From Vulcanimicrobiota bacterium (GTDB lineage Bacteria > Vulcanimicrobiota > Vulcanimicrobiia > Vulcanimicrobiales > Vulcanimicrobiaceae), in assembly GCA_963714015.1 (NCBI GenBank), contig OY970223.1:544001-608000 (forward strand): a DNA stretch of 64,000 nt, given 5' to 3'. Under the pieces are notes generated by a model, which saw only the letters and a list, made by a program, of their open reading frames with translations, was not told the origin of the DNA and ran no database searches. The translations under genes were made by a program, and so were the position numbers. Positions 791-19,754 of this stretch are shown one piece after another. Within the stretch, counting starts at the first letter, position 1. Each line of letters opens with the position of its first letter.

Positions 791-798
791 GCGCGCGG

Positions 799-2687: not shown

Positions 2688-3644
2688 CTATTCGGGCGCG
2701 TCGTCGACGTGCTGCGCGTACTCGCGCGGATTGAAATACCAGCTCGGGAGCGAACTCGGGAACTGAATGTCGTTATAGTCGAACGTAACCTTCTGCCCGT
2801 CTCCGGTATAGATCTTATCCTCGGTGATCGTGCCGCTCTTGTCCGTGTGAATAATGGGCATCACGGTGCCGTCCAAATGCGTGATTACGACGTAGCCGTC
2901 GAGATAGCCGAGCGTGTAGTCGAAGATCACCGGATAGATGTCGTCTCCTTGAACGAACAGGCGGTCATGGGCGATAATCTTGCGCAGAACGAAGGTCTTT
3001 TTGTCGACCCAGATCTGACGCAGCACGTTGCGCTCGGGATCGCGGCGCGGTTCGAGCCAAAGATGCAGCATGTCGCCTTCAACCGCGACCTTAGGAACGT
3101 TGTAATCGAATTCGCCGACGACGACGACCGCTGAGATCGTTTTGAGAGGTCCGTTGGTCGGCTCCGGCGTGGGCACGACGTTTATGGGCTGCGGATGCGC
3201 CGGCTCGAACAGGTCGGCCGTCGGCGGTCCCGGGTCGCGATCCTGATTGAGCGCCGGTCGATCGAAATTCAGCGGTCCGTCGGTATCGCCGCGGTCGACT
3301 TGGCGGTACAGCGCAGCGCGATCGGTATTACGAACCCAGTATTTGCGCGTATACGAACTGGCGTAATCCGGAAGCGGCGTGGAATCGGGACCGACGCTGT
3401 AATTGGTGTTCTGCGCGCGCACGAGCGTGTAGGTTTCGTACGCCGGAGGCGGGCGGTGCAGTCGATAAACACGCCGGATGTAACCGAGAAGGCGCACCGG
3501 CGTAAGCGTCTGATAAGGCGGAAGCGGCAATTCGGCTTGAGGATCCGCGCTCGTTTTTACGCGCGGGATCGAAAACGCGGCCGCAATCAATGCCGCGGCG
3601 AACACGGCAATGCCGGCGCGCCGGAGGGGCGATCCAGTACTCAT
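2688..3644 (-). CDS. Secreted hypothetical protein, possibly LolA/RseB-like fold
   Basis: Signal peptide. HLWLEP..DP...LRQIWVD..T...RK motif shared with 27400..28092. Confidence 0.7.
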   Translation of the reverse strand: MSTGSPLRRAGIAVFAAALIAAAFSIPRVKTSADPQAELPLPPYQTLTPVRLLGYIRRVYRLHRPPPAYETYTLVRAQNTNYSVGPDSTPLPDYASSYTRKYWVRNTDRAALYRQVDRGDTDGPLNFDRPALNQDRDPGPPTADLFEPAHPQPINVVPTPEPTNGPLKTISAVVVVGEFDYNVPKVAVEGDMLHLWLEPRRDPERNVLRQIWVDKKTFVLRKIIAHDRLFVQGDDIYPVIFDYTLGYLDGYVVITHLDGTVMPIIHTDKSGTITEDKIYTGDGQKVTFDYNDIQFPSSLPSWYFNPREYAQHVDDAPE

Positions 3645-3694: not shown

Positions 3695-4642
3695 CTAACG
3701 CGACAGAACGCGTTCGCCTGCGCGGGCAAGCGCGTACCCGACCAGCCGGTCGACCAGTGCCCCGTATGAGATTCCGGCCGCTCCGCACGCGTCCGGTATG
3801 AGGCTGGTCGGCGTAAGGCCGGGCAAAGAGTTTATCTCCAGGATATAAGGGCGGCCTTCTTTGCTGACGATGAAATCGCAGCGGGAGTAGTCGCGCAATC
3901 CGACGAGCCGGTGCACGGAAAGCGCCAGCATTTGCACGCGCGCGGCCAAATCAGGATCGATGCGCGCGGGGACGACGTGCGTACTCCCGCCGGCGCCGTA
4001 CTTTGCGTCGTAAGTATAAAATTCGTCTTTGGTCGGAATGACTTCGATGACGGGCAACGCATCCTCACCGAGGATCGCGCAGTGCAGTTCGCGACCGCCG
4101 ACAAACTCCTCCGCAATCACTTCGGTGTACTCTTCGGCCGCTGCCAGCATTGCCTTAGTCCATTGTTCGTGCGTATGCACGATCGTGACGCCGACGCTGC
4201 TGCCTTCGTACCTGGGCTTGATGACGAGCGGCAGATCGAGGGAACCGGGAAGCAGCGGCAGCGTACCCCCGGTGAGATCGAACAGATCCCATGCGGGCGT
4301 CGGCAGCCCTTCGGCCGCGCAGAGTTTCTTGGTGAGGTGTTTGTCCATCGCGATGGCCGACGCTTCTATGCCGCTTCCGGTGTACGGGATGTTCAAATGC
4401 TCGAGAATGCCTTGGATTTGTCCGTTCTCGCCGCCCGGGCCGTGGAGCGCGATAAACGTCACGTCCGGTGCGATCTCGCGAATGGCATCCACGAACCGCA
4501 CGTCGTAGTCGAGCGACTTGGTCTCGTAGCCGAGATCGTTCAGTGCGCGCAGCACGCCCGATCCGCTTTGAATCGAGATCTCGCGTTCGGCGCTGTTGCC
4601 GCCCATCACGACGGCGACGCTGCCCTTCGAAGTTCTAGTCAA
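3695..4642 (-). CDS. ddl: D-alanine--D-alanine ligase
   Basis: GGNSAEREIS, ALHGPGGENG, EGSSVG, YDAKY, EINSLPG. TTG start overlaps the murB stop. Confidence 0.95.
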   Translation of the reverse strand: MTRTSKGSVAVVMGGNSAEREISIQSGSGVLRALNDLGYETKSLDYDVRFVDAIREIAPDVTFIALHGPGGENGQIQGILEHLNIPYTGSGIEASAIAMDKHLTKKLCAAEGLPTPAWDLFDLTGGTLPLLPGSLDLPLVIKPRYEGSSVGVTIVHTHEQWTKAMLAAAEEYTEVIAEEFVGGRELHCAILGEDALPVIEVIPTKDEFYTYDAKYGAGGSTHVVPARIDPDLAARVQMLALSVHRLVGLRDYSRCDFIVSKEGRPYILEINSLPGLTPTSLIPDACGAAGISYGALVDRLVGYALARAGERVLSR

Positions 4643-5601
4643 GTGACCGGCTCCGTATCGATGAAGACGCCGACGAGATGCACTTCGAGCTCGAGTTCGA
4701 CGCTGAAGCGCTCCGCCACGGCTCGGCGCACGCGCGCCAGCAGCGCCGCGACGTCGCACGCGCGCGCATTCGCGACGTTGTTGATGAAATTTGCATGCAG
4801 CGGCGAGACTTCCGCGCCACCCTGACGCCACCCCTTAGCGCCGGCCGCTTCGATCAACCGAGCCGCCTTTTCGCCCCGAGGATTCCGAAAACAGGAACCC
4901 GCGTTCGGAAGCGCGATGGGTTGCGTGTTTTTGCGCCGCACGAGCCGGTGCTGCACTTCCTCGCGCACCATTTTGGCTTCGCCGCGTTCGAATTGCAATG
5001 TGACGCGCGTGACCACGGCGTCTCGCGCCAGTGAGGTGTGGCGGTAATAATATTGCACGCTGACCGGATGCGGATCGGCTTTCGCCGGCGATTGCACCCA
5101 TACGTCCATGACGAAATCGCCGATCTCTTTGTCGGTCCCCGCGTTCATACGCAACGAACCGCCGACGCTTCCCGGAATTCCGGCGAGCGAACCGATGCCG
5201 GTAGCGCCGGCACTCGCGGCTTTTGCAGTCAATTGCGCCATATTTGCGGATGCACCGGCGTATACCAGCACTGCGTCTTGCGAAGCGTCGATGCGAATCT
5301 GCGCAAACTCTCCTGCCAGTCGCAAAACCAAACCACGAATTCCGCCATCCCCGACCAGCAAATTGCTTCCGCTGCCCAGGACGAACCACGGGGTCTTGCG
5401 CTTGCAGCAGAACCGCATGATTTGCGCGAGGGCTGCTTCGTTTTGGACTGTCACCAGCGCATCGGCGGGACCGCCGACTCGCCACGACGTGTAGGGCGCC
5501 AGCGGCTCGTCAAAAGCTGCGTTCGCTCCGGCGATGCCCGTCAGGATCTCGCGATCGCCCGAGGAAAGGACGCTCTCGAGCGCTACTGACACGGCGCTCA
5601 T
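4639..5601 (-). CDS. murB: UDP-N-acetylenolpyruvoylglucosamine reductase
   Basis: VGGPAD, GSGSNLL, IPGSVGG..MNAG, AGSCFRNP, HANF, LELEV. Confidence 0.95.
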   Translation of the reverse strand: MSAVSVALESVLSSGDREILTGIAGANAAFDEPLAPYTSWRVGGPADALVTVQNEAALAQIMRFCCKRKTPWFVLGSGSNLLVGDGGIRGLVLRLAGEFAQIRIDASQDAVLVYAGASANMAQLTAKAASAGATGIGSLAGIPGSVGGSLRMNAGTDKEIGDFVMDVWVQSPAKADPHPVSVQYYYRHTSLARDAVVTRVTLQFERGEAKMVREEVQHRLVRRKNTQPIALPNAGSCFRNPRGEKAARLIEAAGAKGWRQGGAEVSPLHANFINNVANARACDVAALLARVRRAVAERFSVELELEVHLVGVFIDTEPVT

Positions 5602-6968
5602 GCGCCGGCCGCTTGCGGAATACCGGCCGCGAGCTGTGCGGCGACGTTCGTGATGTTGCCGGCGCCGAGCATCAAGACGAGCGCTCCAGGCGGCGCATCG
5701 CTCGCCAGGATATCGCGCAAATCCTCGACGGCTTTGACGTAATACACCGGTTTGCCGAGAGCCTGGAGGGGCTGGCCGATGTTGCGTTCGCTCACACCTT
5801 GGATGGGCGCTTCGCTGGCCGCGTAGATTGGGGCCAAGTATACTGCGTCGGCGCCTTGCAGCGCTTCGGCGAACTCACGCGCGAGATGGGCAGTTCGAGT
5901 GTACCGATGCGGCTGGAAAGCAACCAATACCGGACCGGAATGGTACAGACGCGCTGCGGCGATCGTTGCTCGAACAGCGGTCGGATGGTGCGCGTAATCG
6001 TCCACGACCGTGAAGCGGCTGCGCTTTGCGAGGATTTCGAAACGGCGGCGCACGCCGCGAAAGTCCTTCAGCGCTTCGGCGATCTTCAGGAACGGTATGC
6101 CCAGTTCGCGCGCCACCGCGATCGCGGCCAGCGCGTTCTGCACGTTGATTTCCCCCGGCACCTGGAGTTTTGCAGTACCCAAGCACACGCCGCCGGAGAC
6201 GACGTCGAAGGACGATCCGAAATCCGCGAAACGGACGTTCACTGCCCGCAGATCCGCTTCGGGGCGAAGTCCGTACGTTTGCGTTCGAGCGCGCCGCGTG
6301 CCTTGCGCGACGGTACGGCTGTGCAGGTTGTCGATGCCGACGATCGCGGCGCCGCCTTCGGGCAGTTTGCTCAAGAACGCGTCGAAGGCCTCGACCAACT
6401 GCGGAAGTTCGGCATCGGATGCCAAGTGATCGTTCTCGATGTTCGTTACGACGGCGATCGCCGGTTCGAGCAGTGCAAACGAGCCGTCGGACTCGTCCGC
6501 TTCCGTCAAAAACCATGGCGCGCTTCCATGGTGCGCATTCGTTCCGGTGAGTGCGTCGATTCCACCAAGGACCAAACTCGCGTCGATCCCGCAGCCGCGT
6601 AAAACCGTAGCGGTCATGGCAGTACTCGTCGTCTTGCCGTGCGTTCCGCAGATCGCGATGCCGCGCAATCCTTCCATGATGCGGCGCAGCATTTCCCCGC
6701 GTCGCACGATCGGCACGTCCCATTCGAGCGCGTGCCGGTATTCGGGATTCTGCGGATCGATTGCCGAACTCACGACGACGGTGCTTGCATTCACGTTGCG
6801 AGCATCGTGACCGATCGTTATCGCCGCACCTTGCTCGCGAAGCGCATCGATCAGCGGCGATTCCGCAACGTCGGAGCCGGTGATTCGCTCGCCGCGCGAG
6901 AGCAAAATCGAAGCGATGGCGCTCATACCGATGCCCCCGACACCGACGAAATGCAGAGAGTTGCTCAC
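5598..6968 (-). CDS. murC: UDP-N-acetylmuramate--L-alanine ligase
   Basis: HFVGVGGIGMS, GTHGKTT, EADESDGS, DDYAHHP, FQPHRY. GTG start overlaps the murG stop. Confidence 0.95.
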   Translation of the reverse strand: MSNSLHFVGVGGIGMSAIASILLSRGERITGSDVAESPLIDALREQGAAITIGHDARNVNASTVVVSSAIDPQNPEYRHALEWDVPIVRRGEMLRRIMEGLRGIAICGTHGKTTSTAMTATVLRGCGIDASLVLGGIDALTGTNAHHGSAPWFLTEADESDGSFALLEPAIAVVTNIENDHLASDAELPQLVEAFDAFLSKLPEGGAAIVGIDNLHSRTVAQGTRRARTQTYGLRPEADLRAVNVRFADFGSSFDVVSGGVCLGTAKLQVPGEINVQNALAAIAVARELGIPFLKIAEALKDFRGVRRRFEILAKRSRFTVVDDYAHHPTAVRATIAAARLYHSGPVLVAFQPHRYTRTAHLAREFAEALQGADAVYLAPIYAASEAPIQGVSERNIGQPLQALGKPVYYVKAVEDLRDILASDAPPGALVLMLGAGNITNVAAQLAAGIPQAAGA

Positions 6969-8080
6969 GCGGCTCTCCTTCGCGCCGCCAGGCCGTCTAT
7001 CCGTGCGACGATCGTCGCAACGGGATCGCCCCCGCCAAGCGAGCGTGCCGCAGCGCGCATTTCGGCAAGCCGCGAGGGCTCCATCGCGTTGCGCAGCGTC
7101 CACCAAAGCGAGTCGGCGTTCAGTTTGGAATCTTCAATGACGATCGCCGCACCGCTCGCCTCGAATACTGCGGCGTTACGCGCCTGATGATCCTCGGAGG
7201 CGAACGGATACGGAATCAGAATGGAAGGCGCTCCCAATGCCGCAAGTTCGCCGATCGTCGACGCACCGGCCCGTGCAACGACCAGCTCCGCTACGGCGTA
7301 CGCATCCGCCATCTCGGTGAGATACGGCACGAGTTTGACGAAATTTCCGCCGAACGTGTCCCGCTCCTCGGCGCGCATGTATTCGTAGTCGCGCTCACCG
7401 GCGACGTGCAGTATCTGCCAATCGTTCGGAAGCGCCCGTCGCGTCACCAGGGCAGCCACGGTTTCATTTATCGAGCGCGCGCCCTGACTTCCACCGATCG
7501 CCAAAATCGTGCGGCGGGACGGATCGAGGCCTAGACGACGCGCCGCTTCGACCCGGTTGTTCGGGCGAAGCAGTGAGGCGCGCACCGGGATCCCGGTATG
7601 CACGAACTTGTGAGCAAGTGCGCCGTCGGGCTGTGCGAACGCGCCCCAAACTTCGTCGACCATCGGCGCCAGGAGGCGATTCGTCAAACCGGGCTGAGCA
7701 TTCGGCTCGAGCAGCGCGAATCGCGCGCGCAGACGCCCGGCGGAACGCAGAACCTTGGCGGCCGCGATGACCGGAAAGCAGACATAGCCCCCGGTGGCGA
7801 TGACGACGTCGGGATCGAAACGCACGAGCGCGCGCATTGCCTGTGCGATTCCGGCAAGATTTGCCCAAGCAGTGCCGATCAGTGCGAGCGAGAGGCGGCG
7901 GCGAAGCGGGCGGCTCGAGATCGTCTCGAGTTCGTAGCCCGCAGAAGGAATGATGCTCGTCTCCAAACGGCCGTTCGTACCGATGAAGCGGATTTGCGCC
8001 CGCGATCGAATCGCGTCGGCAAGCGCGATGGCCGGATAGAGATGGCCGCCCGTGCCTCCCCCGGCAAAGATCACTTTCAT
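6965..8080 (-). CDS. murG: Lipid II N-acetylglucosaminyltransferase
   Basis: GGGTGGHLYP, TGGYV, GGSQGA, RAGAST, HQ..NA. Confidence 0.95.
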   Translation of the reverse strand: MKVIFAGGGTGGHLYPAIALADAIRSRAQIRFIGTNGRLETSIIPSAGYELETISSRPLRRRLSLALIGTAWANLAGIAQAMRALVRFDPDVVIATGGYVCFPVIAAAKVLRSAGRLRARFALLEPNAQPGLTNRLLAPMVDEVWGAFAQPDGALAHKFVHTGIPVRASLLRPNNRVEAARRLGLDPSRRTILAIGGSQGARSINETVAALVTRRALPNDWQILHVAGERDYEYMRAEERDTFGGNFVKLVPYLTEMADAYAVAELVVARAGASTIGELAALGAPSILIPYPFASEDHQARNAAVFEASGAAIVIEDSKLNADSLWWTLRNAMEPSRLAEMRAAARSLGGGDPVATIVARIDGLAARRRAA

Positions 8081-9126
8081 GCCGCTTCGGAATTCCAGAG
8101 CAAGTCCTGTGCGTGCCCGTCGGATCTCGCCACCAGCACGTCGCTTCCCCCGGGCCATAGCGTCATGGTCGTCTCGTACGAAAGGTTGAGCGCCGGCGGC
8201 TCCATGCGTACCCATGCGAACGGCGCTCGTTCGCTCGCGCGCGCGCCAATCTCCCGCACGTCGCGCTCGAGATCGCGCCGCTGCGCAGGAGTGAGGTGCT
8301 CGACCATGACGGTGTGCATGACGATCGTGGTGAAACCGGGCTTTGGAAGCGCGACCTCGGCCATCCATCGGATGCCGTCCGCTCGATCGATGCTGACGGG
8401 ATGCTCGCGCGCTATAGCGATTGCCCGCTCGACGCGGTCGAAGCGATCGCGCTGATCCGGCCATACGAAACTCAAGAGACGCGCAGCGTCCGAAGTTTTG
8501 CGCACGTCGAGCGGATGCACATCGCATCCGCGCCGCTCGACAACCTCGAGCGGCACTTCCAAATACGGAGGGGCGCCTTCGAGTGTCCGGTTGTTCAGCG
8601 TCAAACCGGAGTTTGCGCCGCCCCATGTCCACCCATCGCCGGTATGCCGGTAGCGGTCGAAGTTGAGCACGAGTCCGGCGCTCGAGCCGATTTCGAAGAT
8701 GCGCAGCGGCAGCTGCGTCAAACCGGCCACCCGCAGCACGGCGGCTAAGATCGGCGTCGCGCGCGCGACTTCATTCGTCTGAACGGTCAGCCGCAGTTGC
8801 TCTTCGTACTGCGCGAAGTGATGCTGCAAGTCGTCGGCGGTTGCGCGCCACGCGGCAGCAGGATCGCCGTCTCCGCCTGTGGATGGAAAGTGCGATGCAA
8901 GCGCCGGCGCAAGTTTGAGCAGCGCCCGGTAATGCGCAGCGCCGGCCAGCAGAAGTCCCGGTCTCGTGCGGTGAGCGTGACGGTCCAGCAGCCGGCGAAC
9001 GGCACCGCCCGATTCGTACGACGCTGCGGCATCGCGCAAGAGTGCGCCGTAGAACGGCGAGCCCATTGACGCGCAGGCCGCGGCTTGCAGCCGCAGGCGC
9101 TCCGCGATTCCGCCTTGCGCCTCCAT
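8077..9126 (-). CDS. DUF2332-family protein
   Basis: GSPFY, QTNEVAR, EIGSSAGL..NFDRY, RRGCD..P, RLLSFVWPDQ..R. Confidence 0.8.
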   Translation of the reverse strand: MEAQGGIAERLRLQAAACASMGSPFYGALLRDAAASYESGGAVRRLLDRHAHRTRPGLLLAGAAHYRALLKLAPALASHFPSTGGDGDPAAAWRATADDLQHHFAQYEEQLRLTVQTNEVARATPILAAVLRVAGLTQLPLRIFEIGSSAGLVLNFDRYRHTGDGWTWGGANSGLTLNNRTLEGAPPYLEVPLEVVERRGCDVHPLDVRKTSDAARLLSFVWPDQRDRFDRVERAIAIAREHPVSIDRADGIRWMAEVALPKPGFTTIVMHTVMVEHLTPAQRRDLERDVREIGARASERAPFAWVRMEPPALNLSYETTMTLWPGGSDVLVARSDGHAQDLLWNSEAA

Positions 9127-9131
9127 TGAAA

Positions 9132-10298
9132 TTACGGATCCAAGTTGACGCGGCGGTGGCGGCCCACGTTCATAACCAGCGCTACGGCGACGAGGCATAC
9201 GATTAGCGAACTGCCGCCGAACGAAATGAACGGCAGCGGAACGCCGGTCACCGGCCAGGACGACGTAACCACGCCGATGTTCACGAATGCTTGAATGACG
9301 ATCATCGCCGTGCAGCCCCCGGCGAGAAAGAACCCGAAGCGATCCGGTGCGCTGATTGCGATGCGAATTGCGCGGTACGCGAATGCGATGAACAGCGCTA
9401 TCACCGCAACGGTGCCAAAAAGCCCGAGTTCCTCGCCGAGCACCGAAAAGATGAAGTCGGTATATTGCTCCGGCAAGTAAAAGAATTTGGCTCGTGACTC
9501 ACCTAGGCCGACGCCGAAGAGTCCGCCGCTGCCCAGCGCAAGCAGCGACTGCACGATATGAAATCCCGTGTTCTGCGCATCTTTCCAAGGATCCAAGAAG
9601 GCGAAGATGCGCGCGCGCTTGTAGGGGCTGGCCAGCACGGCGAAAAGAACCGGCGGCACCGTCGAGAGCGCGATCACGAAGAGATGCTCCAAACGTGCGC
9701 CGGCCGCAAAAAGCATCGCAAACGCCGTGAACACGATGAGGCTGGCGGTGCCCATGTCGGGTTCCAGAAAGATGAGAATGGCGAACGTCAGAACCACTAG
9801 GCAAAGCGGAAATAACCCGCGGCTGAGCGACGTGATGCGATCGCCCCGAATCGAAAGCGCGGCCGAAAGATACAGAACTATTCCAAGCTTGGCAAACTCC
9901 GAGGGCTGAACGGAGATTATCCCTGCTCCTATCCAACGGCGCGCGCCGTTCACTGCCACGCCCACGTGCGGTACCAAAACCGCGGTCAACGCCAGCCCGC
10001 ACGCCAGGATGGCGTAGGGTGCGATCGGCCGGAGCTTGCGGTAGTCGATGCGGTAGGCGAAGAACGCGGCCGCAAGCCCCACCGCGAGATAGACGAGCTG
10101 ACGTTTGACGTAGTAAGCAGTGTCGTGATGATCTGCATAAGCCTGCGCGCTGGAGGCGCTGAATATCATCGCAAGGCCGATCGCGACCAGACATGCCACC
10201 GATCCGAAGAGCACGACGTCCGGCGGCGCTGCGTGATATGAGCGGGGCTTTGAGCCGCTTTGGGACCGGCTTCCTCTGAGCGGCAGCGTGACGCTCAT
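9132..10298 (-). CDS. ftsW: SEDS peptidoglycan polymerase FtsW
   Basis: NGARRWI, QPSEFAK, EPDMGT, LPEQYTDFIF, GVPLPFISFGGSS. Located in the dcw cluster. Confidence 0.95.
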   Translation of the reverse strand: MSVTLPLRGSRSQSGSKPRSYHAAPPDVVLFGSVACLVAIGLAMIFSASSAQAYADHHDTAYYVKRQLVYLAVGLAAAFFAYRIDYRKLRPIAPYAILACGLALTAVLVPHVGVAVNGARRWIGAGIISVQPSEFAKLGIVLYLSAALSIRGDRITSLSRGLFPLCLVVLTFAILIFLEPDMGTASLIVFTAFAMLFAAGARLEHLFVIALSTVPPVLFAVLASPYKRARIFAFLDPWKDAQNTGFHIVQSLLALGSGGLFGVGLGESRAKFFYLPEQYTDFIFSVLGEELGLFGTVAVIALFIAFAYRAIRIAISAPDRFGFFLAGGCTAMIVIQAFVNIGVVTSSWPVTGVPLPFISFGGSSLIVCLVAVALVMNVGRHRRVNLDP

Positions 10299-11689
10299 AG
10301 TTCCGCAGGCTCCGGAAGCTCGTGCACGGCCGCACTAAATTGCCGGCCGCGGTCCTCGGCGGATTCGAACATGTCGAATGATGCGCACGCCGGCGAGAGC
10401 AGCACCATCCACCCCGGCTTTGCAAGCGAGAGCGCTCGGCGCACCGCGTCGGCCATGCTCTCCGCGTGCTCGATCGGCGTGCGGTAAACGTGCGAGGCGA
10501 TATCTTCCGCCGCCTCGCCGATGAGCACTAATGCCTCCACTCGTTCGTCGATGACCCGTCCGAGCTCGGTGAAGTCGGTATTTTTAGACTTGCCGCCGGC
10601 AATCAGCACACAGGGGCGATCGTAAGCGCGCAGTGCCGCGATCGCGGATCCCGGATTCGTCGCTTTTGAGTCGTCGACGAACAGCACCCCGCCGATCTCC
10701 ATGACTGATTGGAGCCGGTGCGCCATTGCGGAGAACGACTTCACGCCTTCGCGCAGCGCATGCGGTTCCACTCCCACGGCCAGCGCCGCAAGCAGTGCCG
10801 CCATAACGTTCTGCACGTTATGGCTTCCGGCCAGCGGAATCTCGCCGGTTCGAACGATCTCGATCGCCCGCGGGTCTCCGCTGAACGGCGTGAAGATCAC
10901 CGAGTCGCCACTCAGGTACATGGCTGCGCGCTCGTGGCGGGCGCCCAGCGTGAACCATAGTTGGCGCGCGTGCATGCGAGGCTCTCCCGAATGCCAGTCG
11001 AGCTGCGCAACGCGCTCGTCGTCGAGGTTGCCGACGAAAAAGTCTTGCTCGCTTTGGTTGGCAAAGATGCGGTATTTCGCTTCGGCATACTCGTCCATCG
11101 AGTAATAGCGGTCCAGGTGATCCGCAGAAATGTTCAGGATGACCGAGACGCGCGGCCGGAACGAGCGGATCGCTTCGAGTTGAAACGAGGAGACCTCGGC
11201 AACGACCCAGTCGCAGGGATGCGCTGCCGGCACTTCGCGTATCAGCGGATTTCCGATGTTCCCGCCGACGTGCACGGATCGCCCCGCCGCTTGCAGCAGA
11301 TGACCGATCAGCGAGGTCGTGGTCGATTTTCCCTTTGTTCCGGTCACTGCGACGATCGGCGCGCTGCAAAGCCGGTACGCCACTTCGATCTCGCTGAAAA
11401 CCGGAACGCCCGCATCCTGTACCGCGCGCACGAGCGCGCCGTTCAGCGGTACGCCCGGTGAAAGCACCGCCACGGTAAATCGGCCCAGCAGTGGAGCAAG
11501 TTCGGCCGGCGCTATGAACCGGGCACCGGTGCTCTCTATTGCCGATATGGCATCGCGCAGCTCCGCGGGCGCTTTCTCGTCTACCGCATACACCGCCGCG
11601 CCGCGGGCCCGCAGCACTTCCGCCGTAGCTTGGCCGCTGCGTCCGATGCCGATGACCAATATCGTGTCGCCGCCGCCGAAATTCTTCAT
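10295..11689 (-). CDS. murD: UDP-N-acetylmuramoyl-L-alanine--D-glutamate ligase
   Basis: GIGRSG, SPGVP, TGTKGKSTT, EVSSFQL, DDSKATN, LSPACASFD. Confidence 0.95.
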   Translation of the reverse strand: MKNFGGGDTILVIGIGRSGQATAEVLRARGAAVYAVDEKAPAELRDAISAIESTGARFIAPAELAPLLGRFTVAVLSPGVPLNGALVRAVQDAGVPVFSEIEVAYRLCSAPIVAVTGTKGKSTTTSLIGHLLQAAGRSVHVGGNIGNPLIREVPAAHPCDWVVAEVSSFQLEAIRSFRPRVSVILNISADHLDRYYSMDEYAEAKYRIFANQSEQDFFVGNLDDERVAQLDWHSGEPRMHARQLWFTLGARHERAAMYLSGDSVIFTPFSGDPRAIEIVRTGEIPLAGSHNVQNVMAALLAALAVGVEPHALREGVKSFSAMAHRLQSVMEIGGVLFVDDSKATNPGSAIAALRAYDRPCVLIAGGKSKNTDFTELGRVIDERVEALVLIGEAAEDIASHVYRTPIEHAESMADAVRRALSLAKPGWMVLLSPACASFDMFESAEDRGRQFSAAVHELPEPAEL

Positions 11690-12651
11690 ATTGCGATCGC
11701 CATTCCGATGGCGGATAGAACGATCGAAGCGAGCCAAAATCGGCCCGTGACTTTGGTTTCGGGCCAGCCTTCCAACTCGAAATGGTGGTGGAGCGGACTC
11801 ATGCGCAAGATGCGCTTTCCGCCGGTGCGCTTGAAATAAACAACCTGGACGATCACCGAGAGCGCTTCGATGACGAAGACGCCGCCGACTACGATCAGCA
11901 AGAGCATCTCACCGGTGAGTATAGCCAGTGAAGCGAGCAAAGCTCCCAGCGCCAGCGAACCGGTGTCGCCCATGAACATTTTAGCCGGATAGCGATTGTA
12001 GAGCAGCAGGAATGCCGCCGTTGCTCCAATCTCCAGCAGCGCCACTTGCGGCACGGCCGGAACGTAGAACCAGAATCCCAGCGCAGCAAAAACCGCCAGC
12101 GGCGGTATGACGGTGCCGGTGGCAAGTCCATCGAGGCCGTCAGTGAGATTCACGGCGTGAATCGTACCGGTGATCGCCAAGATTCCGAGCAACAGCCAAG
12201 CCCAGTGGGGAACCGCGAGCACGAAACTGCCGGCATGCAGAACGACGTCGCGCGGAAAAGTTCCGTAAGAAGACGAGATTGCGGTCAAAAAAATCACTGC
12301 CACGAGCGCCGTGAGTAAGTATTTGCTGCGCGCGCGCAATCCCCGGTTTTTACCGCGCAAAATTCCCAGTGCGTCGTCGGCCGCGCCGATTGCGGCGCAG
12401 GCAGCGACGAGAAAGAAGATCGTGCCGTCGAACGGTGCGTCGAGCGAGGCGAGCAACACGAAAAGCGGCGTCACGAAACAGAGCCCGCCCATCGTCGGAG
12501 TTCCCGTTTTACGCTGGTGCGTTTGCGGCGCGTCCTCGTAAGCATGTTGGCGCAGCCGGCGCCGCCGCAGCAGGGGCAGCAGAAGCGCGCCCGTCAAGGC
12601 GGCAATTGCGAATCCGGCGGCAACCCAGAGGCCGGCGAGCGTCCAAGTCAC
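11686..12651 (-). CDS. mraY: Phospho-N-acetylmuramoyl-pentapeptide transferase
   Basis: GTPTMGG, NLTDGLDGLA, FMGDTGS, PLHHHFE. GTG start overlaps the upstream stop. Confidence 0.95.
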   Translation of the reverse strand: MTWTLAGLWVAAGFAIAALTGALLLPLLRRRRLRQHAYEDAPQTHQRKTGTPTMGGLCFVTPLFVLLASLDAPFDGTIFFLVAACAAIGAADDALGILRGKNRGLRARSKYLLTALVAVIFLTAISSSYGTFPRDVVLHAGSFVLAVPHWAWLLLGILAITGTIHAVNLTDGLDGLATGTVIPPLAVFAALGFWFYVPAVPQVALLEIGATAAFLLLYNRYPAKMFMGDTGSLALGALLASLAILTGEMLLLIVVGGVFVIEALSVIVQVVYFKRTGGKRILRMSPLHHHFELEGWPETKVTGRFWLASIVLSAIGMAIAI

Positions 12652-13352
12652 TCCGCGGCCTCTTCGAGCAGCGGATTTAAGCCGGTGCCGCGCCATTTCA
12701 GGACGACAATCGGCGTCTGCTCGTCGCCGTTGCCGTGCGGATTCGAAAGAAGCGCAAGCTCGACGTTACGACGGTTCACCCCCGCGCTGGCGCCCAGAAC
12801 CTTCGCTTTCTCTAAATCATTGGCATCGACGACCGCGCAGCCGATGCCGGTGCGATCCAAGACCGACTGCGCCAAGGCGTCCGGATTCTGCGGCGCAAAA
12901 ACGATCATGCGTTCGAACGGCGGCAGCGTTCCGGTATATCCGTCGATCGCCGCAATCGCCTCGCCCAAAATTTCGTAGAACATTCCTCGCCGCCCCGCGA
13001 ACCGTCCAAGCACTTGCATCAGCGCGGCATAGAGTACTCTGCCGGGGCCGGCCTGATCGATAACGATCTGCAGCGACTCGGGCTGACTCACCGTCGCAAG
13101 CGGGCCCGCACGGCGCGAAAGATAGTAGGCGATGCGCGAAGGACGCACGTATTCTGCGCGAACGGCTTGGCCTTGGGCGATCGCCACCGCCGTTTCGGAA
13201 ATGGCGAGCACGTCGCCGGGGCGCGCGATACCGCTTGCGCTGCGCTCGACGAGCGTAATGAGGTCGTCGCCGGCTTGCACCAGCGGCGTGCGCACCGGAA
13301 TGGCAACCACTCCGCTCGGAAGCTCCGTCCGCGAGATTTGCAGGCGTTTCAT
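12648..13352 (-). CDS. CofE-like (F420-0:gamma-glutamyl ligase family) amide ligase
   Basis: IPVRTPLV..GDDL, GDVLAISE.AVAIAQG, IDG..GT, VVDAND, NP.GN.DEQTPIV. Confidence 0.78.
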   Translation of the reverse strand: MKRLQISRTELPSGVVAIPVRTPLVQAGDDLITLVERSASGIARPGDVLAISETAVAIAQGQAVRAEYVRPSRIAYYLSRRAGPLATVSQPESLQIVIDQAGPGRVLYAALMQVLGRFAGRRGMFYEILGEAIAAIDGYTGTLPPFERMIVFAPQNPDALAQSVLDRTGIGCAVVDANDLEKAKVLGASAGVNRRNVELALLSNPHGNGDEQTPIVVLKWRGTGLNPLLEEAAE

Positions 13353-14734
13353 GCCGGCTCCGCCGCCCCAGGCACGCGCAAAGCGGCGACGATTTCTTCC
13401 ATCTTATATTTTCGGGAGCCCTTGAACAGGACGGCATCGCGCGGGCCCGTATGCTCGCGCAGCCAGCTCGCGGCTTCCTCGTTCGTCTCGAACCGCACGA
13501 TGCGATCCGCCGGCATCCCGGCGGCGACCGCGCCCGCGGCAATTGACGAGGCGTATTCACCCCCGACGAGGAGTGCGTCTACGCCGACTGCCGCTGCATG
13601 CGCACCCACGCGTTCGTGCAAAGCGGTCGAAAGCGGCCCCAGTTCCGCCATACTTGCGAGCACCGCGATGCGATGCTCGGCCGCTTCGGCAGAAAACGCA
13701 TTCAGCGCGGCGATCATTCCGCTCGCGTTGGCGTTGTACGCGTCGTATATCAAACGCGCTCCGTTTTCACCCGGAACGCTCTCATACCGCCCCGGCGGAA
13801 GCGTAAGGTGCGGAATCGCTTCGATCGCCGTGGATTTCGGCATGTCGAGGGCCAGTGCCGCAGCAACGGCCGCAGCCAAGTTTGCACGATTGTGGGCGCC
13901 GGGCAAGCGGACACGCGTCTCAAACTGCTGTTCGCGCCCCTGCAGTGTAACGATCAACGTCTGTTCGTTCGGGATCCACACGCCCGGACCGCAGGGTTTG
14001 CCGGTACCGAACCAGATCGGCGAGGTTCGCAGCAGCGGGGCGCGCAGCGCCGATTCCGTATCGCCTGCATTCAGCACTGCCTGCGCGCCGTTCGAGAACA
14101 GTCCCCATTTCGTACGCGCAAGGCGCTCGGCGGACCCGAAAATCTCCAGATGCGCCTCGCCGATATTCGTCAGCACGCCTACATGCGGGTGCGCAAGGGA
14201 GACCAGCTCCGCAATCTCGCCTTCGTGCCGCGCGCCCATCTCGATCACGGCTGCAGTATGACGAGATCGCAACTGCAGCAGCAGTTTGCTCACGCCGATC
14301 TCATTGTTTTCGTTCGCCGGCGTCGCCAGTACGCGGTCCTCACCGTAATACGCGATGAGCAGCTGCGCCAAGAGATGCTTGGTCGTGGTTTTGCCGGCGC
14401 TTCCCGTGATGGCGATGACGCGTCCGGCGTACGTGCTGCGCGCATCCGCCGCCAGCTGCATGTACGCGAGCTTTGTGTCGCCGACGATGAGCGCGCATAT
14501 ATCGGGCGGCAACATTGCCGGACCCTCGACGACGAACGCAGCGGCGCCCTTTCTGTGCGCTTCCTCGATGAACGCGTGACCGTCGTAACGCTCGCCTCGA
14601 AGCGCGAGAAACGTATCACCGGGGCAGATCGTCCGCGTGTCGGTAACGATGCGCAGTTCATTTGGAAACGCACCGCCGTTCACCACTTGCGCCGACGTGG
14701 CGGCAGCAGCTCGTTGCAGCGTTAAGCCATTCAC
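13349..14734 (-). CDS. murF: UDP-N-acetylmuramoyl-tripeptide--D-Ala-D-Ala ligase
   Basis: ITGSAGKTTTK, NNEIG, EMGARH.GEI, DAYNAN, KGSR. Confidence 0.95.
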   Translation of the reverse strand: MNGLTLQRAAAATSAQVVNGGAFPNELRIVTDTRTICPGDTFLALRGERYDGHAFIEEAHRKGAAAFVVEGPAMLPPDICALIVGDTKLAYMQLAADARSTYAGRVIAITGSAGKTTTKHLLAQLLIAYYGEDRVLATPANENNEIGVSKLLLQLRSRHTAAVIEMGARHEGEIAELVSLAHPHVGVLTNIGEAHLEIFGSAERLARTKWGLFSNGAQAVLNAGDTESALRAPLLRTSPIWFGTGKPCGPGVWIPNEQTLIVTLQGREQQFETRVRLPGAHNRANLAAAVAAALALDMPKSTAIEAIPHLTLPPGRYESVPGENGARLIYDAYNANASGMIAALNAFSAEAAEHRIAVLASMAELGPLSTALHERVGAHAAAVGVDALLVGGEYASSIAAGAVAAGMPADRIVRFETNEEAASWLREHTGPRDAVLFKGSRKYKMEEIVAALRVPGAAEPA

Positions 14735-16197
14735 AATTTCACCGTTCCGCGGCGCTGCAACGCTCCCCGAACGACTGCGACGTCGTCGAAAGGCAGAACA
14801 TGGGATCCGACGATTTGATAGCGCTCGTGGCCCTTTCCGGCAACCAAAATTGCATCCCCGGGCCTTGCTTCATTCACCGCCAACTCGATGGCGGCGCGGC
14901 GATCCGGTTCGACCGCATGCGGCGCTGTACCGATTGCCGGGAGAATATCGTCGATGATCGCGCCCGGATCTTCGGTGCGCGGATTGTCCGAGGTAACGAT
15001 CGCGAAATCGGCATAGCGCGCGGCCGCGGCTCCCATGAGGGCGCGTTTACCGCGATCGCGATCCCCGCCGCAGCCGAAAACGATGATGATCCGGCCGCGG
15101 GTTACTTCCCTAAGAGAGCGCAGCGCATTTTCAAGCGCGTCCGGCGTGTGTGCATAGTCGATGACGGCATCGACGCCGTCGCCGGGCACGTGCTCCATCC
15201 GTCCGCTGACGCGGGCGAGCGTTTCCAGTCCGGCGGCGGAATCGGCATCACCGATCCCTAGAGCGCGCGCCGACGCAATGGCACAAAGCGCATTGTACAC
15301 GTTGAAACGACCGGGAATGCGCACGCTGAACCGGCGCGCGTCTAAGGTGAACGCGCTTCCGTCGGCGCGCACCTCCAATTCCGAGGGGCGAACATCGGCG
15401 GCATTCTTGACAGCGTACGTCAGAACCGGTTTGCGGCTGCGCAATTCCCGCGACCAGCGATCTCCCAGTTCGTCGTCGACGTTGAAGATCGCATGCGGGG
15501 CTTGCTCGAACAACTGGTGCTTAGCCGCCGCATAGGCTTCGAACGTTTTGTGGAAGTCGAGATGGTCGCGCGTGACGTTCGTAAGCGCGCCGGCGTCGAA
15601 GTGAATGTCGGCGACGCGCTGCAGCGCAAGCGCATGCGAGCTGACCTCCATCGCGACGGCCTTCGCGCCTTGGCGGCGCATTTCCGCGAGCAGCGAATGG
15701 AGCTGCGGCGCAAGCGGCGTGGTGTTCTCCAGCGGCCGCTCGCTGCCGCCGAAGCGCGCGCCGATCGTTCCGATGGTTCCCGCAGGTATTCCGGCAGCAG
15801 TGAAAATAGCGGCGAGCATTTGCGTGGTCGTGGTTTTCCCGTTCGTGCCGGTAATGCCGGCAACGATCAGCGCACGCGAAGGGCTGCCGTAAAACACGTC
15901 GGCGATCTGAGAGACCGCCCGGGCCGAATCCGGAACGACGATCGCCGTTACGCCGGGCGGCACCTCACAATGCTCTTCCATGACGACCGCAACCGCACCG
16001 CGCTCCGCTGCCTGCGCGATGAAGCGGTGACCGTCGGTCTGTTCGCCGCGCAGCGCGACGAATAGCGCTCCCGGCCGGACTTCTCGGGAATCCGATGCTA
16101 GCGCCGTCACCTGTTTTGCGGTTTCGCCGACGACTCGTGTGTTCTGCGCAAGCGTGCGCAGCAGCGTTTCCAGCGCTACGCCTTGCTCCGGCTCCAT
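14731..16197 (-). CDS. murE: UDP-MurNAc-L-Ala-D-Glu--meso-diaminopimelate ligase
   Basis: TGTNGKTT, MEVSSH, DHLDFH, DYAHTPD, GCGGDRD, AGKGHE. DNPR motif indicates mDAP specificity. Confidence 0.95.
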   Translation of the reverse strand: MEPEQGVALETLLRTLAQNTRVVGETAKQVTALASDSREVRPGALFVALRGEQTDGHRFIAQAAERGAVAVVMEEHCEVPPGVTAIVVPDSARAVSQIADVFYGSPSRALIVAGITGTNGKTTTTQMLAAIFTAAGIPAGTIGTIGARFGGSERPLENTTPLAPQLHSLLAEMRRQGAKAVAMEVSSHALALQRVADIHFDAGALTNVTRDHLDFHKTFEAYAAAKHQLFEQAPHAIFNVDDELGDRWSRELRSRKPVLTYAVKNAADVRPSELEVRADGSAFTLDARRFSVRIPGRFNVYNALCAIASARALGIGDADSAAGLETLARVSGRMEHVPGDGVDAVIDYAHTPDALENALRSLREVTRGRIIIVFGCGGDRDRGKRALMGAAAARYADFAIVTSDNPRTEDPGAIIDDILPAIGTAPHAVEPDRRAAIELAVNEARPGDAILVAGKGHERYQIVGSHVLPFDDVAVVRGALQRRGTVKL

Positions 16198-16199
16198 GG

Positions 16200-17966
16200 C
16201 TATCGGCTATTCTCCGCGAGCTTCGGCCGGACCAAGCGCGCCGGCGGATTTATTGCGGGGAGCACGCCCGCATGGAGCATCGCGGCCTTTGCGATTTCGA
16301 CGAAAGCCGGAGCCGCAACCTCGGAGCCGTAGATGGACCCGACCGGCCTTTCCACTTTGACGTAGATAACGTAGCGCGGACGTTGGTAGGGGATCATGCC
16401 GATGAAGGACGCTACGTACGCGCCCGGCTCGTAGATGCCGTTTACGGGAATCTGCGCGGTGCCGGTCTTTCCCGCAGTCGTATATCCGGCGATTTGCGCG
16501 GCGGGATTGCCCGTTCCGCGTACGACGACCGCTCGCAGAAAGGCTCTCAGCCGCGCCGCGGTGCGGGACGAGAAGACGCGGCGTTCGATTTCCGGTGGAT
16601 ATTGATAGATCTGATTGCCTTGCGGGTCGAGAACTGCGCGTAATACGCGCGGACGCATGAGCAGACCGCCGTTGGCAATCGCGCTGTAGAAGCGCGCCAT
16701 GGCGATCGGCGTCACTGAGACGCCTTGTCCGAATGCCATGGTCGCCAGCGAACTCCCGCTCCAGTCAGCCGGCGCCGGCACGATTCCGGGATTTTCTCCG
16801 GAGATGCCAATCTGCGTCGGATCGCCGAATCCCGCGCGGCGCTCCATCGCGTAGAACGTCGAGCCGCCGATCTTCATCGCCACTTGGGCCGCGCCGATGT
16901 TCAGCGAATCGGCAATGATCGTCTCGAGCGTATCGCCGCCGGGGCTTGGCGCCAGTCCGTCGACGGCGTTATAGATTTGACGCCCTCCGACGACAAGGGG
17001 GCCGGTCGAGAGAAATTTCTCGCCCAGCGAAACCTTGCCGCTTTCGATTGCGGCCGCGGCCGTTACGAGTTTGAAGGTCGAACCGGGTTCGTACGCGTCT
17101 TGAACGGCCCGGTCGCGCAAATCGCCGGCGGAGAACTTCCAATACTGATTCGGATCGAAGTGCGGCAGATTCGCCAGCGCGAGCACTTCGCCGGTGTTCG
17201 GATCCATTACGATTGCGGTGCCGCTTTCCGCGTGATATTCCTTGACCTGCTTGGCAAGCGACGATTCTGCGACGAATTGCAGATACGGATCGATCGTCAG
17301 TTCGAGTGAGAGGCCGGGTTTTGCGGGTTTGATCACGCGCTCGCGCCCGAAGGGAATCGGACGGCCGAATTCGTCGGTTTCCATCGTAACGCGGCCGGAC
17401 GTGCCTTTGAGCAGATCGTCGTACGTGTATTCCAGGCCGTCCAGCCCATTCTCGTCGATCCCGACAAAGCCCAGGAGCGTCGACGCACTTTTGCCGGCCA
17501 AATCGACTCGCCGTCCCGTGTCCTCTTCAATCAGCGAAATGCCGGGCAGATCCAGACTTTGCACTTTGACTGCGAGGTCGTGCGGAATCTTTCGCGCAAT
17601 CCAAACAAACTGCAGCGCCCGATCGTGCAGCAACTCGATCGTCGCTTTGTCGAGTTTGCCGACCAGCGGCTCGAGCTCGCGCACGGCGGCGTCGGGATCC
17701 GCCAGATCGTGCGGCACGCCGTACACACTTTCGGACGGAAGGGATTGCACCAGCACGTTACCGTCGCGATCGAGGATGCTCCCGCGGCGGGCAAAGACTT
17801 CGACCGTATCGCTGCGCTGTTCCAAAGCCTCTTTGGCGTAAAGCGGGCCTTTGAGCATCTGCACGTCGACCAGGCGCCACGACAAGTAGATGCCTACGGC
17901 CATCAGCACGTAAAAGAGCGTTTTCGCGCGCCGGGGTGCGACGCGCGAAAAGGTCCGCTTATGCAT
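16200..17966 (-). CDS. ftsI: Class B penicillin-binding protein (FtsI/SpoVD-like), no PASTA domain
   Basis: N-terminal TM, RGSILDR, EPGSTFK (SxxK), SLN (SxN), GKTGTA (KTG). Confidence 0.92.
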   Translation of the reverse strand: MHKRTFSRVAPRRAKTLFYVLMAVGIYLSWRLVDVQMLKGPLYAKEALEQRSDTVEVFARRGSILDRDGNVLVQSLPSESVYGVPHDLADPDAAVRELEPLVGKLDKATIELLHDRALQFVWIARKIPHDLAVKVQSLDLPGISLIEEDTGRRVDLAGKSASTLLGFVGIDENGLDGLEYTYDDLLKGTSGRVTMETDEFGRPIPFGRERVIKPAKPGLSLELTIDPYLQFVAESSLAKQVKEYHAESGTAIVMDPNTGEVLALANLPHFDPNQYWKFSAGDLRDRAVQDAYEPGSTFKLVTAAAAIESGKVSLGEKFLSTGPLVVGGRQIYNAVDGLAPSPGGDTLETIIADSLNIGAAQVAMKIGGSTFYAMERRAGFGDPTQIGISGENPGIVPAPADWSGSSLATMAFGQGVSVTPIAMARFYSAIANGGLLMRPRVLRAVLDPQGNQIYQYPPEIERRVFSSRTAARLRAFLRAVVVRGTGNPAAQIAGYTTAGKTGTAQIPVNGIYEPGAYVASFIGMIPYQRPRYVIYVKVERPVGSIYGSEVAAPAFVEIAKAAMLHAGVLPAINPPARLVRPKLAENSR

Positions 17967-17972
17967 GGCGGA

Positions 17973-18413
17973 CTATTTCGCGCGCAGCAGGCTGGTCAAA
18001 CTGGAGAGGAAGGCCAAGTGCGATCCGTCTTCGCGTTTGACGCGCGCCGGAAGTGTGACGACGGCGAATTGCTGCGGATCGCTCATATGCAGCGACGAGG
18101 CCAGACGGGCGAGCCGATCGTCGGATTCGAGTTGGGCAAGCCGATCGTCCAAACGCGCGGCTTCGGCCTGTAAATCCGCTCGCTGACGTTCGGCGCGCGC
18201 CATGGCGTAATTGAGACTGGTAAGATGCGCGGTGAGCATGACGTATAGCATCGCGCAAGCAAGCCCGGCGAACAGCATTGCGCAAAACGAGCGCAGCGCC
18301 GAATAGCGGGCAAGGGCTTTGCGCCGCACTCGACGCTGGGTGGCCTGTTTGGCGGTGCGAACGTTGGAGATGCGCGGTTTGGGCTGAAGCGTTTGTGCAA
18401 GTTGTGCCGGCAT
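17973..18413 (-). CDS. ftsL: FtsL-like cell division protein
   Basis: Single TM followed by a coiled coil, between rsmH and ftsI. Confidence 0.75.
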   Translation of the reverse strand: MPAQLAQTLQPKPRISNVRTAKQATQRRVRRKALARYSALRSFCAMLFAGLACAMLYVMLTAHLTSLNYAMARAERQRADLQAEAARLDDRLAQLESDDRLARLASSLHMSDPQQFAVVTLPARVKREDGSHLAFLSSLTSLLRAK

Positions 18414-18416
18414 CGA

Positions 18417-19292
18417 TCAGCTTGCCTTCCGTTTGGCGGCGCGCAGCTTGGCGCTGCGTGCGCGGGGATTTTGCTGGAGTTCGTCCTGGCCCGGAACGAC
18501 GGGCTTACGCGTGAGCACTTCAAGCCGTTCATCCTCACGGAAAGCGTGCTTGACGATCCGGTCTTCCAGTGAATGAAAGCTGATGGCGACAACGCGGCCC
18601 GCGTCACGCAGCCGATCGACTGCGGCGTCGAGGCCTTCACGCAGGACATCGAGCTCGTCGTTCACCGCAATGCGCAGCGCTTGGAATACTCGGGTTGCGG
18701 GATGGATCCGTTCGCGCCGCCCCGGCCGGTAGAGCAGTCCGCTGATCATCTGTCCGAACTCCACGGTCGTGTCGGGCAGCGTTCCGGTTTTGCGGCGCTG
18801 CACGATAACGCGCGCGATGCGCCGGGCCGCGCGTTCCTGTCCATAGTTAAAGAAGATGTCCGCCAGCTCGGATTCGCTGGCCGTCATGAGAATGTCGAAT
18901 GCGCTCCGGCCGACACGTGAATCCATCCGCATGTCGAGCGGCGCCGATTCTCGAAACGAGAATCCGCGAGAGCCCTCATCAAACTGCATTGACGAAATCC
19001 CAAGGTCGAAGAGGATGCCGTCGACCCGCTCGATTCCGAGCCGATCCAAGGCTGAGGAAATGTGGCGGAAGTTCGATTGCGCGAAGGTGAAATGCCGGTC
19101 GGCGATCTGCGCGGCGCGACCCGCTGCCGACGGATCTGCATCGAGCGCAATGAGCCGGCCGCTCGTCAAGCGCGCCAGGATGCCCCGGCTGTGTCCGCCC
19201 GCGCCGAACGTCGCATCGACATAGATCCCATCCGGGCGGATCGCCAAATACTCCAGCGAGGCCTCGAACAGGACCGGAACGTGTTGATCCAT
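18417..19292 (-). CDS. rsmH: 16S rRNA C1402 N4-methyltransferase
   Basis: HVPVL, DATFGAGGHS, DLGISS.Q, PLDMRM, TRVFQALRI, SFHSLEDR, NPRARSAKLR. Confidence 0.96.
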   Translation of the reverse strand: MDQHVPVLFEASLEYLAIRPDGIYVDATFGAGGHSRGILARLTSGRLIALDADPSAAGRAAQIADRHFTFAQSNFRHISSALDRLGIERVDGILFDLGISSMQFDEGSRGFSFRESAPLDMRMDSRVGRSAFDILMTASESELADIFFNYGQERAARRIARVIVQRRKTGTLPDTTVEFGQMISGLLYRPGRRERIHPATRVFQALRIAVNDELDVLREGLDAAVDRLRDAGRVVAISFHSLEDRIVKHAFREDERLEVLTRKPVVPGQDELQQNPRARSAKLRAAKRKAS

Positions 19293-19310: not shown

Positions 19311-19754
19311 TCAGTACAATCCCAGCTCCGCCATGATGTCGGACACGTCGTCAGCAGGCTTGGCATACTCGGCCACGCGCTCGCGAGCCCAAACTTCCAC
19401 CCGCGTTAGTGAACCTATCGAAGTCACATCCCGCTCGATGGCCGCGAACGTCCGCAGCGACCCGGGAATCAGCAGGCGGCCTTGCGCGTCGCACGCGACC
19501 TCTTCGGTATGCGCGAACACGTGGCGAACGAAGCGCCGAAACCGGTCGTCCTTCGTTGCTGCAGTCTCCAATCGCGTGCAGATCTGCTCCCAAGCCGACT
19601 CGGGATAGAGCAGCAGACACGGGTCGGACGAGGAAATAGTTAAGATGAAGCCTGTGCCTAGCCGCTCCCGGAACCGCGCAGGCACGATGAGACGCCCCTT
19701 CTCGTCCAGGGCGTGCTCGACCGAGCCGGTGAAGCGCGGCAAGTCCGCGTGCAA
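19311..19754 (-). CDS. mraZ: Division/cell wall cluster repressor MraZ
   Basis: DEKGRLIVP and DAQGRLLIP repeats. TTG start after AAGGGAGG. Confidence 0.95.
   Translation of the reverse strand: MHADLPRFTGSVEHALDEKGRLIVPARFRERLGTGFILTISSSDPCLLLYPESAWEQICTRLETAATKDDRFRRFVRHVFAHTEEVACDAQGRLLIPGSLRTFAAIERDVTSIGSLTRVEVWARERVAEYAKPADDVSDIMAELGLY

Follow-up and report, generated by a model that had tools for sequence, protein, structure and literature searches.

Why should a relative of the coenzyme F420 ligase CofE sit inside a bacterial cell-wall operon? The question is raised by a 64,000-nucleotide stretch of DNA, hereafter the window, from a Vulcanimicrobiota bacterium (GenBank assembly GCA_963714015.1, contig OY970223.1, positions 544,001 to 608,000 of the forward strand). 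The source genome (G000) is a single contig of 3.56 Mb with an estimated completeness of 89.6%. On the minus strand of the window, a gene with an ATG start (12648-13352) encodes a soluble, 234-residue CofE-fold protein that we call X. It lies between murF (13349-14734), encoding the UDP-MurNAc-tripeptide:D-Ala-D-Ala ligase with its Mur_ligase N, M and C domains, and mraY (11686-12651, or to 12696 as the longest open reading frame (ORF)), encoding the phospho-MurNAc-pentapeptide translocase (Glycos_transf_4). An earlier sequence-only reading of the window had reported that X overlaps both neighbours, and we find both overlaps in the sequence: an ATGA shared by the murF stop and the X start (13349-13352), an arrangement of translational coupling, and a GTGA shared by the TGA stop of X and a candidate GTG start of mraY (12648-12651). 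The cytoplasmic part of peptidoglycan synthesis is generally held to be completely catalogued. On the evidence of gene context and protein sequence, X probably performs a cell-wall synthesis step that has not been described before.

X belongs to the PF01996 (F420_ligase) superfamily by both gathering score and fold. It matches the profile at 50.3 bits (cut-off 25), at positions 2-112 of 218 only, and has no transmembrane segment (maximum KD19 = 1.02). An AlphaFold2 model of X from 28 homologues has a mean pLDDT (predicted local distance difference test score) of 84.5. When this model was compared with the PDB using Foldseek, chains of A. fulgidus CofE were the only matches at E <= 0.001 (E 5e-10 to 1.6e-8; TM-score 0.54-0.58; root-mean-square deviation (rmsd) ~4.6-5.5 Å; identity 20-22%), and the next match had an E-value of 2.7. 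A profile of X aligned with five true CofE sequences in hhalign at a probability of 97.3%, across X residues 23-186. We treat X as the founding member of a peptidoglycan-linked PF01996 subfamily. A domain scan found no Mur-ligase, MurT_C, GATase or Asn_synthase domain in X, which is not a member of the Mur ligase family or of MurT; the Mur ligase that is fused to X in one genus, g43, is MurF itself.

Judged by its sequence, X is not an F420-0:L-glutamate ligase. Its score against TIGR01916 is 34 bits, with an equivalog cut-off of 180.65 and only residues 18-101 matched; against NF009809 it scores 33.6 bits (cut-off 274) and against TIGR04132 13.3 bits (cut-off 350). PF01996 is matched by one gene only in the source genome, and neither CofD (TIGR01819) nor CofC (PF01983) was found in the window or in the whole genome at its 89.6% completeness. 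The lack of F420 genes in the window, remarked upon in the sequence-only reading, thus holds, and none qualifies in the rest of the genome either, where two CofH-like radical-SAM matches reach 319 and 262 bits, under the cut-off of 374. These two CofH/CofG-like genes are adjacent to one another outside the window (G000:C1:1411170-1414103; L002, L003). We take them to be, probably, MqnC and MqnE of the futalosine pathway, an identity that would fit the menaquinone reported for a cultured relative. Co-occurrence with F420 genes had been proposed as a check, and it comes out in the same sense: CofD was found in 0 of the 132 genomes of the window's class and in 38 of the 69 genomes of other classes. 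As a reference for true CofE we used five genes adjoining cofD in sister classes of the one phylum. Four of the five CofD-bearing genomes checked have both a true CofE (184-230 bits, PF01996) and an X-type paralogue (28-51 bits), and the fifth (G072) returned the CofE match alone with the PF01996 query. The CofE segment T-H-K-I-V-S-K-A-E-G-R aligns to S-E-T-A-V-A-I-A-Q-G-(R/Q/E) in X, and the later CofE motifs (ANAGxDxSN, DSxGRxWR and ELxxGK) are unaligned or not kept. In a quick maximum-likelihood tree (IQ-TREE, 159 rows, midpoint-rooted), the five CofE rows are split from 154 X-family rows with a Shimodaira-Hasegawa-like approximate likelihood ratio test (SH-aLRT) support of 100. X does not, then, group with true CofE; it is such grouping, in an F420-producing genome, that the sequence-only reading had named as an outcome speaking against its proposal.

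The position of X is fixed throughout the class, which consists of soil bacteria. We examined the 29 best-scoring loci of the family together with 10 chosen from 18 order- and class-level genomes, and the order murF-X-mraY is kept in all 39. The sequence-only reading had proposed to test whether this order is conserved across the phylum; it holds for the class only, and in other classes the homologue is a membrane-anchored protein, described below, that is encoded elsewhere in the genome. Counting the window's own locus as well (n=40), the murF stop overlaps the X start by four nucleotides in 37 loci, and MurF and X form one in-frame ORF in three (L038-L040, all from genus g43). A metagenomic protein of 736 residues (P0123) has the same Mur-ligase plus X architecture. 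Long open frames beside X were rejected as evidence of fusion elsewhere, since frames in high-GC DNA are open by chance and only the three g43 loci are in frame. At the X/mraY junction, counted by eye, ATGA or GTGA occurs in 32 of the 40 loci, TAATG or TGATG in three and neither in five. Most relatives have a start codon at this spot, and the mraY start in the window is likely to be the GTG at the X stop, which gives a protein of 321 residues. In every one of the 39 loci, X is also better conserved than MurF and MraY: mean identities to the window are 72.6% for X, 56.6% for MurF and 65.2% for MraY in the family (29 loci), and 57.4%, 44.7% and 48.5%, respectively, at order and class level (10 loci). 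X-type matches occur in 198 of 201 genomes of the phylum, and X is present in 131 of the 132 class genomes, the source genome included (112/113 in family f1, 3/3 in f2 and 15/15 in f3); the sole class genome with no X match, G197, is 90% complete. These phylum tallies include two genomes flagged as unpublished (G128 and G178), whose omission alters no conclusion. A single in-frame stop codon falls within the X match in three genomes of genus g21 (TAG; G115, G169 and G200) and in three of genus g28 (TGA; G137, G170 and G193); the C-terminus may be shorter there, with the search having read on past the stop, or the stop may be a conserved one.

Beyond the class, X-type domains are found in a variety of fusions. 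A HMMER scan of 1.84 billion representatives gave 715 matches at E <= 0.001 (88 at E <= 1e-30), and architectures were tallied on the best 150 of the 715. The most frequent, in 42 of the 150, joins X to a new N-terminal module of ~180 residues that we call Y, and X stands alone in 39. TPR-X follows with 11, Amidase_3-X with six (no evident signal peptide), AsnB-type amidotransferase-X with five and X-MraY with up to four, on short metagenomic contigs. There is one representative each of MurF-X, X-transmembrane segment-polysaccharide deacetylase, X-M20 peptidase, X-GNAT, X-adenylate kinase and HD-X, and the remaining members of the best 150 are fragments or carry unassigned extensions. The fusions to AsnB, Amidase_3, MraY and a peptidoglycan deacetylase strongly support a tie between the X-type domain and the cell wall.

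In the other classes of the phylum (10 loci), the homologue, at ~41% identity, is a Y-X protein of ~400 residues encoded away from the mur genes. An FbiB-like explanation for these ~400-residue relatives was rejected, because what they carry in addition, at the N-terminus, is Y and no nitroreductase domain. Y begins with a transmembrane helix followed by a beta-sandwich (model pLDDT 91), and its invariant residues include N60, Q64, D70, R74, P78, E80, Q81, R98, D100, Y102 and E104 (Sporomusa numbering). It matched no Pfam or NCBIfam family, and a Foldseek search with it returned generic beta-sandwich matches only (GAE/appendage, ApaG and the TMEM106B luminal domain; TM-score <= 0.5), so that the structure offers no functional clue beyond an anchor or adaptor. 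Y was not found in the source genome at E <= 10. In the tree, the X sequences embedded in the division and cell wall (dcw) cluster form one clade with 100% support (24 rows, including a MurF-X fusion), nested among Y-X proteins. On this midpoint-rooted tree, the dcw clade looks like a derivative in which Y was lost and the gene moved into dcw. Two Y-X loci of Xenobia were annotated and have no cell-wall neighbours. In one Xenobia genome (L050:1338-4437), a fused energy-coupling factor (ECF) transporter S/T component and a double ATP-binding cassette (ABC) ATPase come directly before Y-X; no such ECF/ABC neighbours were seen in L045.

A third arrangement is found in the Negativicutes. A scan with the Sporomusa orthologue gave at least 327 relatives, of which 80 were kept (identity 62-87%). 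These are almost all from Negativicutes, Sporomusa, Pelosinus, Megasphaera, Anaerovibrio, Mitsuokella and Selenomonas ruminantium among them, and a few records from metagenome-assembled genomes are labelled otherwise (Lachnospiraceae, Patescibacteria, Bacillota). Here Y is a separate gene directly upstream of X in 77 of the 80 loci (e.g. L056:5447-5989 and L134:5440-5985), and the order murI (glutamate racemase)-Y-X is found in all five loci annotated. The Negativicutes Y and the N-terminal module of fused Y-X proteins (~190 residues in L050:4471-5775) are homologues (E 2e-12 and 2e-7). An X orthologue is present in 148 of 151 Negativicutes genomes sampled, nearly always in single copy. Nor is the family confined to the Negativicutes: of 201 genomes sampled from the whole phylum Bacillota, 69 have an X-type match, and many of these matches reach no more than 25-50% identity. 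The Y anchor would bring X to the membrane's inner face, which is where the lipid intermediates lie.

What, then, might X do? Our preferred explanation is that X is a cytoplasmic enzyme of peptidoglycan-precursor synthesis, an amide ligase that would act on a carboxylate of the stem peptide, probably the alpha-carboxyl of D-Glu, and we consider this proposal about evenly balanced between right and wrong. Produced together with MurF and MraY, X would be dedicated to the precursor pathway, and its substrate would most likely be the finished stem peptide, either as UDP-MurNAc-pentapeptide or as lipid I. As a CofE-fold ligase, it would activate a free stem-peptide carboxylate with a nucleotide and then join an amine to it, and the leading candidate for that carboxylate is the alpha-carboxyl of D-Glu. 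The tie to the cell wall is a matter of observation; that X works as a ligase, and with which nucleotide, carboxylate and nucleophile, we infer. A substrate other than a peptidoglycan precursor would make it hard to explain why X lies between MurF and MraY and is fused to MurF, why it is under stronger purifying selection than the Mur enzymes, why Amidase_3, MraY, deacetylase and AsnB fusions have arisen independently, and why relatives elsewhere have a membrane anchor and lie near murI. The amide-ligase part of the proposal follows from the only known chemistry of the fold, nucleotide-dependent amide formation on a carboxylate, and from the free carboxylates of D-Glu and meso-diaminopimelate (mDAP) in the stem peptide. 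In the available text of a CofE study, the authors compare its mechanism to that of MurD (PMC10861534). Eleven residues (D47, E53, D137, T140, T142, D176, N178, D179, N204, N208 and T213) are invariant in 28 sequences of both architectures, and the persistence of these acidic and polar residues across clades with different partners is the pattern of an active site. MurT (MurT_C) was not found in the source genome, so no known system for D-Glu amidation competes for the role. The central suggestion of the sequence-only reading, an F420-independent CofE homologue tied to peptidoglycan-precursor synthesis, is accordingly strengthened by the class synteny, the MurF-X fusions, the lack of CofD matches in the class, the separate clade and the wall-enzyme fusions.

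Several observations weigh against this amide-ligase proposal. Residues invariant in CofE are changed in X (K33 to T54, K37 to I58, E39 to Q60, D64 to L85 and R66 to E92), and CofE chemistry, including its use of a nucleotide, cannot simply be transferred. The arginine of the AQGR motif (position 62) is Q in the window's X and E in some relatives. The similarity of the fold to CofE is moderate (TM-score 0.55-0.58, rmsd 4.6 Å), and the HMMER alignment of X to solved CofE is limited to residues 6-80. Four-nucleotide overlaps are usual throughout the operon (murE/murF and murD/ftsW are joined in the same way), so that the overlap of X with murF indicates operon membership and nothing more special. 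The X-MraY fusions come from short contigs, and one of them (P0252) has an N-terminus that looks out of frame; they may therefore be sequencing errors. Finally, the available portion of the Vulcanimicrobium alpinus paper contains no biochemical or muropeptide results for members of the X family. A predicted complex of X with MraY scored 0.00, which weighs neither for nor against binding.

Four other explanations were considered. A serious rival, albeit one that we think unlikely, is that X has no catalytic activity and serves as an adaptor: a fold that was once a ligase would bind UDP-MurNAc-pentapeptide, or hold MurF against MraY, and so pass the precursor to the membrane step or gate that step. 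The loss of the invariant CofE lysines and the R/Q/E variation at position 62 would suit such a role, as would the fusion of X to MurF, its tight coupling to MraY, and the presence of anchoring or adaptor modules (Y or TPR), in place of a second catalytic domain, in 53 of the 150 representatives. It is less easily reconciled with the eleven or so invariant acidic and polar residues, with a rate of evolution slower than that of the adjoining Mur enzymes, or with fusions to AsnB, GNAT, M20 and adenylate kinase, which suggest chemistry over scaffolding. A little less probable in our view is a function in peptidoglycan turnover or recycling, in which X would be a cytoplasmic enzyme that trims, rejoins or proofreads stem peptides or faulty precursors. 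The six Amidase_3-X proteins, with no obvious signal peptide, and the X-M20 peptidase fusion are what one might expect of such an enzyme, but in the window's class the X gene is part of a biosynthetic operon, flanked there by murF and mraY, and MurF-X fusions exist; in the Negativicutes it lies downstream of murI; and no recycling genes were seen adjoining X in the annotated loci.

We regard it as improbable that X ligates glutamate or another amino acid to a soluble small molecule unconnected with the wall, such as a folate-like or other cofactor tail, its place in the dcw operon being incidental. According to the available text of PMC10861534, glutamylation of a cofactor is what all characterised members of the fold do. 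X also has its weak match, 13.3 bits against a cut-off of 350, to the 'putative folate metabolism gamma-glutamate ligase' family TIGR04132, and the two annotated Xenobia Y-X loci lack cell-wall neighbours. Against this, all 39 loci keep X in its position, MurF-X fusions exist, and the independent Amidase_3, MraY and deacetylase fusions are hard to explain for an enzyme with no wall substrate. That X might be a genuine CofE glutamylating F420-0 is effectively refuted: it matches PF01996 above the cut-off, and public records call its close relatives 'coenzyme F420-0:L-glutamate ligase', but the far-from-sufficient TIGR01916 and NF009809 scores, the lack of CofC and CofD matches in the source genome and of CofD in the class, the separate clade and the replaced CofE invariants all contradict that name.

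If X is an amide ligase acting on a stem-peptide carboxylate, the Negativicutes suggest what its amine might be. Polyamine decoration of their peptidoglycan has been known since 1981, and a 1982 J Biol Chem paper by Kamio and co-workers is said to have described the attaching activity as membrane-bound and as using lipid intermediates. According to the available text of later reports, the peptidoglycan of Negativicutes has cadaverine or putrescine joined by an amide bond to the alpha-carboxyl of D-Glu, and binding by the S-layer homology (SLH) domain of OmpM needs that diamine (PMC10628300, PMC5020339, PMC12826042, PMC5007114, bioRxiv 10.1101/2021.05.31.446380). No gene for diamine attachment is named in the parts of that literature available to us, and full-text searches found nothing. 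It is possible, although we hold the idea tentatively and think it unlikely to be right as a whole, that X or Y-X is the ligase by which diderm Firmicutes amide-link a diamine (cadaverine or putrescine) to the D-Glu alpha-carboxyl of their peptidoglycan, and that the same chemistry takes place between MurF and MraY in the window's class. Eremiobacteria would then also carry amine-decorated peptidoglycan, and if the nucleophile varies by clade the family would amount to a general set of tools, not seen before, with which carboxylates of the stem peptide are decorated.

The extension of diamine attachment to the window is opposed by several findings. No SLH-domain protein was found in the source genome, which is that of a diderm (BamA is present), and of the 113 genomes in the window's family no more than 42 have an SLH domain, yet X is kept. 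The genome also has a single PF02784 decarboxylase locus, which may be lysA. A simple link between polyamine and SLH in this genome was rejected on these three grounds, and any diamine added by X would not serve OmpM-type tethering, given the missing SLH domain and its rarity in the family. Outside the class, 67 of 69 genomes have an SLH domain, against four of 44 in genus g4, a distribution that suggests repeated loss of an SLH-based envelope component.

On the minus strand, the dcw genes run mraZ-rsmH-small ORF-ftsI-murE-murF-X-mraY-murD-ftsW-DUF2332-murG-murC-murB-ddl. Upstream of murF lie mraZ (19311-19754), rsmH (18417-19292), a small ORF (17959-18285), an ftsI-type gene for a class B penicillin-binding protein (16200-17966) and murE (14731-16197), whose product has the DNPR motif pointed out in the sequence-only reading, at residues 404-407. 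Downstream of mraY, and in the same operon as X, are murD (10295-11737), ftsW (9132-10298), a DUF2332 gene (8077-9198; PF10094, 281 bits), murG (inside an ORF at 6965-8632), murC (5598-7106), murB (4639-5601) and ddl (3695-4831). The DUF2332 gene, between ftsW and murG, overlaps a 5' extension of the longest murG ORF; none of the 10 loci from order and class level in which ftsW is included gave a DUF2332 match, and the gene therefore looks like a recent insertion. After ddl comes an ORF of 318 residues (2688-3644, minus strand) with no Pfam match, possibly ftsQ, and beyond it a citrate synthase gene and a His_biosynth gene (71-2109, minus strand). The mur genes are not followed by ftsA and ftsZ at this locus.

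When a gene lies between murF and mraY, is better conserved than both, is present class-wide and, in other phyla, recurs in fusions with wall enzymes, the indication is that a step or a modifier of peptidoglycan synthesis has been missed. A role of this kind would give a function to many CofE homologues annotated as 'F420 ligase' in organisms without F420, and X offers a candidate gene for the polyamine decoration of Negativicutes peptidoglycan that is needed for outer-membrane tethering. The phylum has a cultured member, Vulcanimicrobium alpinus WC8-2, and Veillonella parvula is genetically tractable.

How does X compare with the systems already known? With CofE and FbiB's N-terminal domain (A. 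fulgidus 2PHN, 2G9I and 7ULD) it shares the fold and the N-terminal GDDL and AxGR-type motifs. Unlike them, it falls under the equivalog cut-offs, matches only the first half of the Pfam profile, has replaced CofE K33, K37, E39, D64 and R66, comes without an F420 pathway and forms a separate clade with other genomic and fusion partners. TIGR04132 is likewise a CofE-fold family without an F420 context, but X is not a member of it, and X of the source genome, which has no Y, is not a member of the Y-X module either. The supposed task of X, to turn a free carboxylate of the stem peptide into an amide while the precursor is still in the cytoplasm, would be that of MurT/GatD, which amidates the D-Glu of lipid II (as the available text of PMC3266927 describes), and of the AsnB/LtsA-type enzymes that amidate mDAP. 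The folds of MurT/GatD and AsnB are unrelated to X, and AsnB-type amidotransferases are fused to an X-type domain in five of the 150 representatives. The diamine-attaching activity of the Negativicutes differs from X in its distribution, in that X-type genes also occur in other phyla and in 69 of 201 Bacillota genomes, with some matches far from the Negativicutes type. The two are nonetheless alike in several respects: an X orthologue is near-universal and single-copy in the class that has the trait (148/151), it follows glutamate racemase and is paired with the membrane anchor Y, as would suit an enzyme working on lipid intermediates, and the chemistry required is an amide ligation on a carboxylate.

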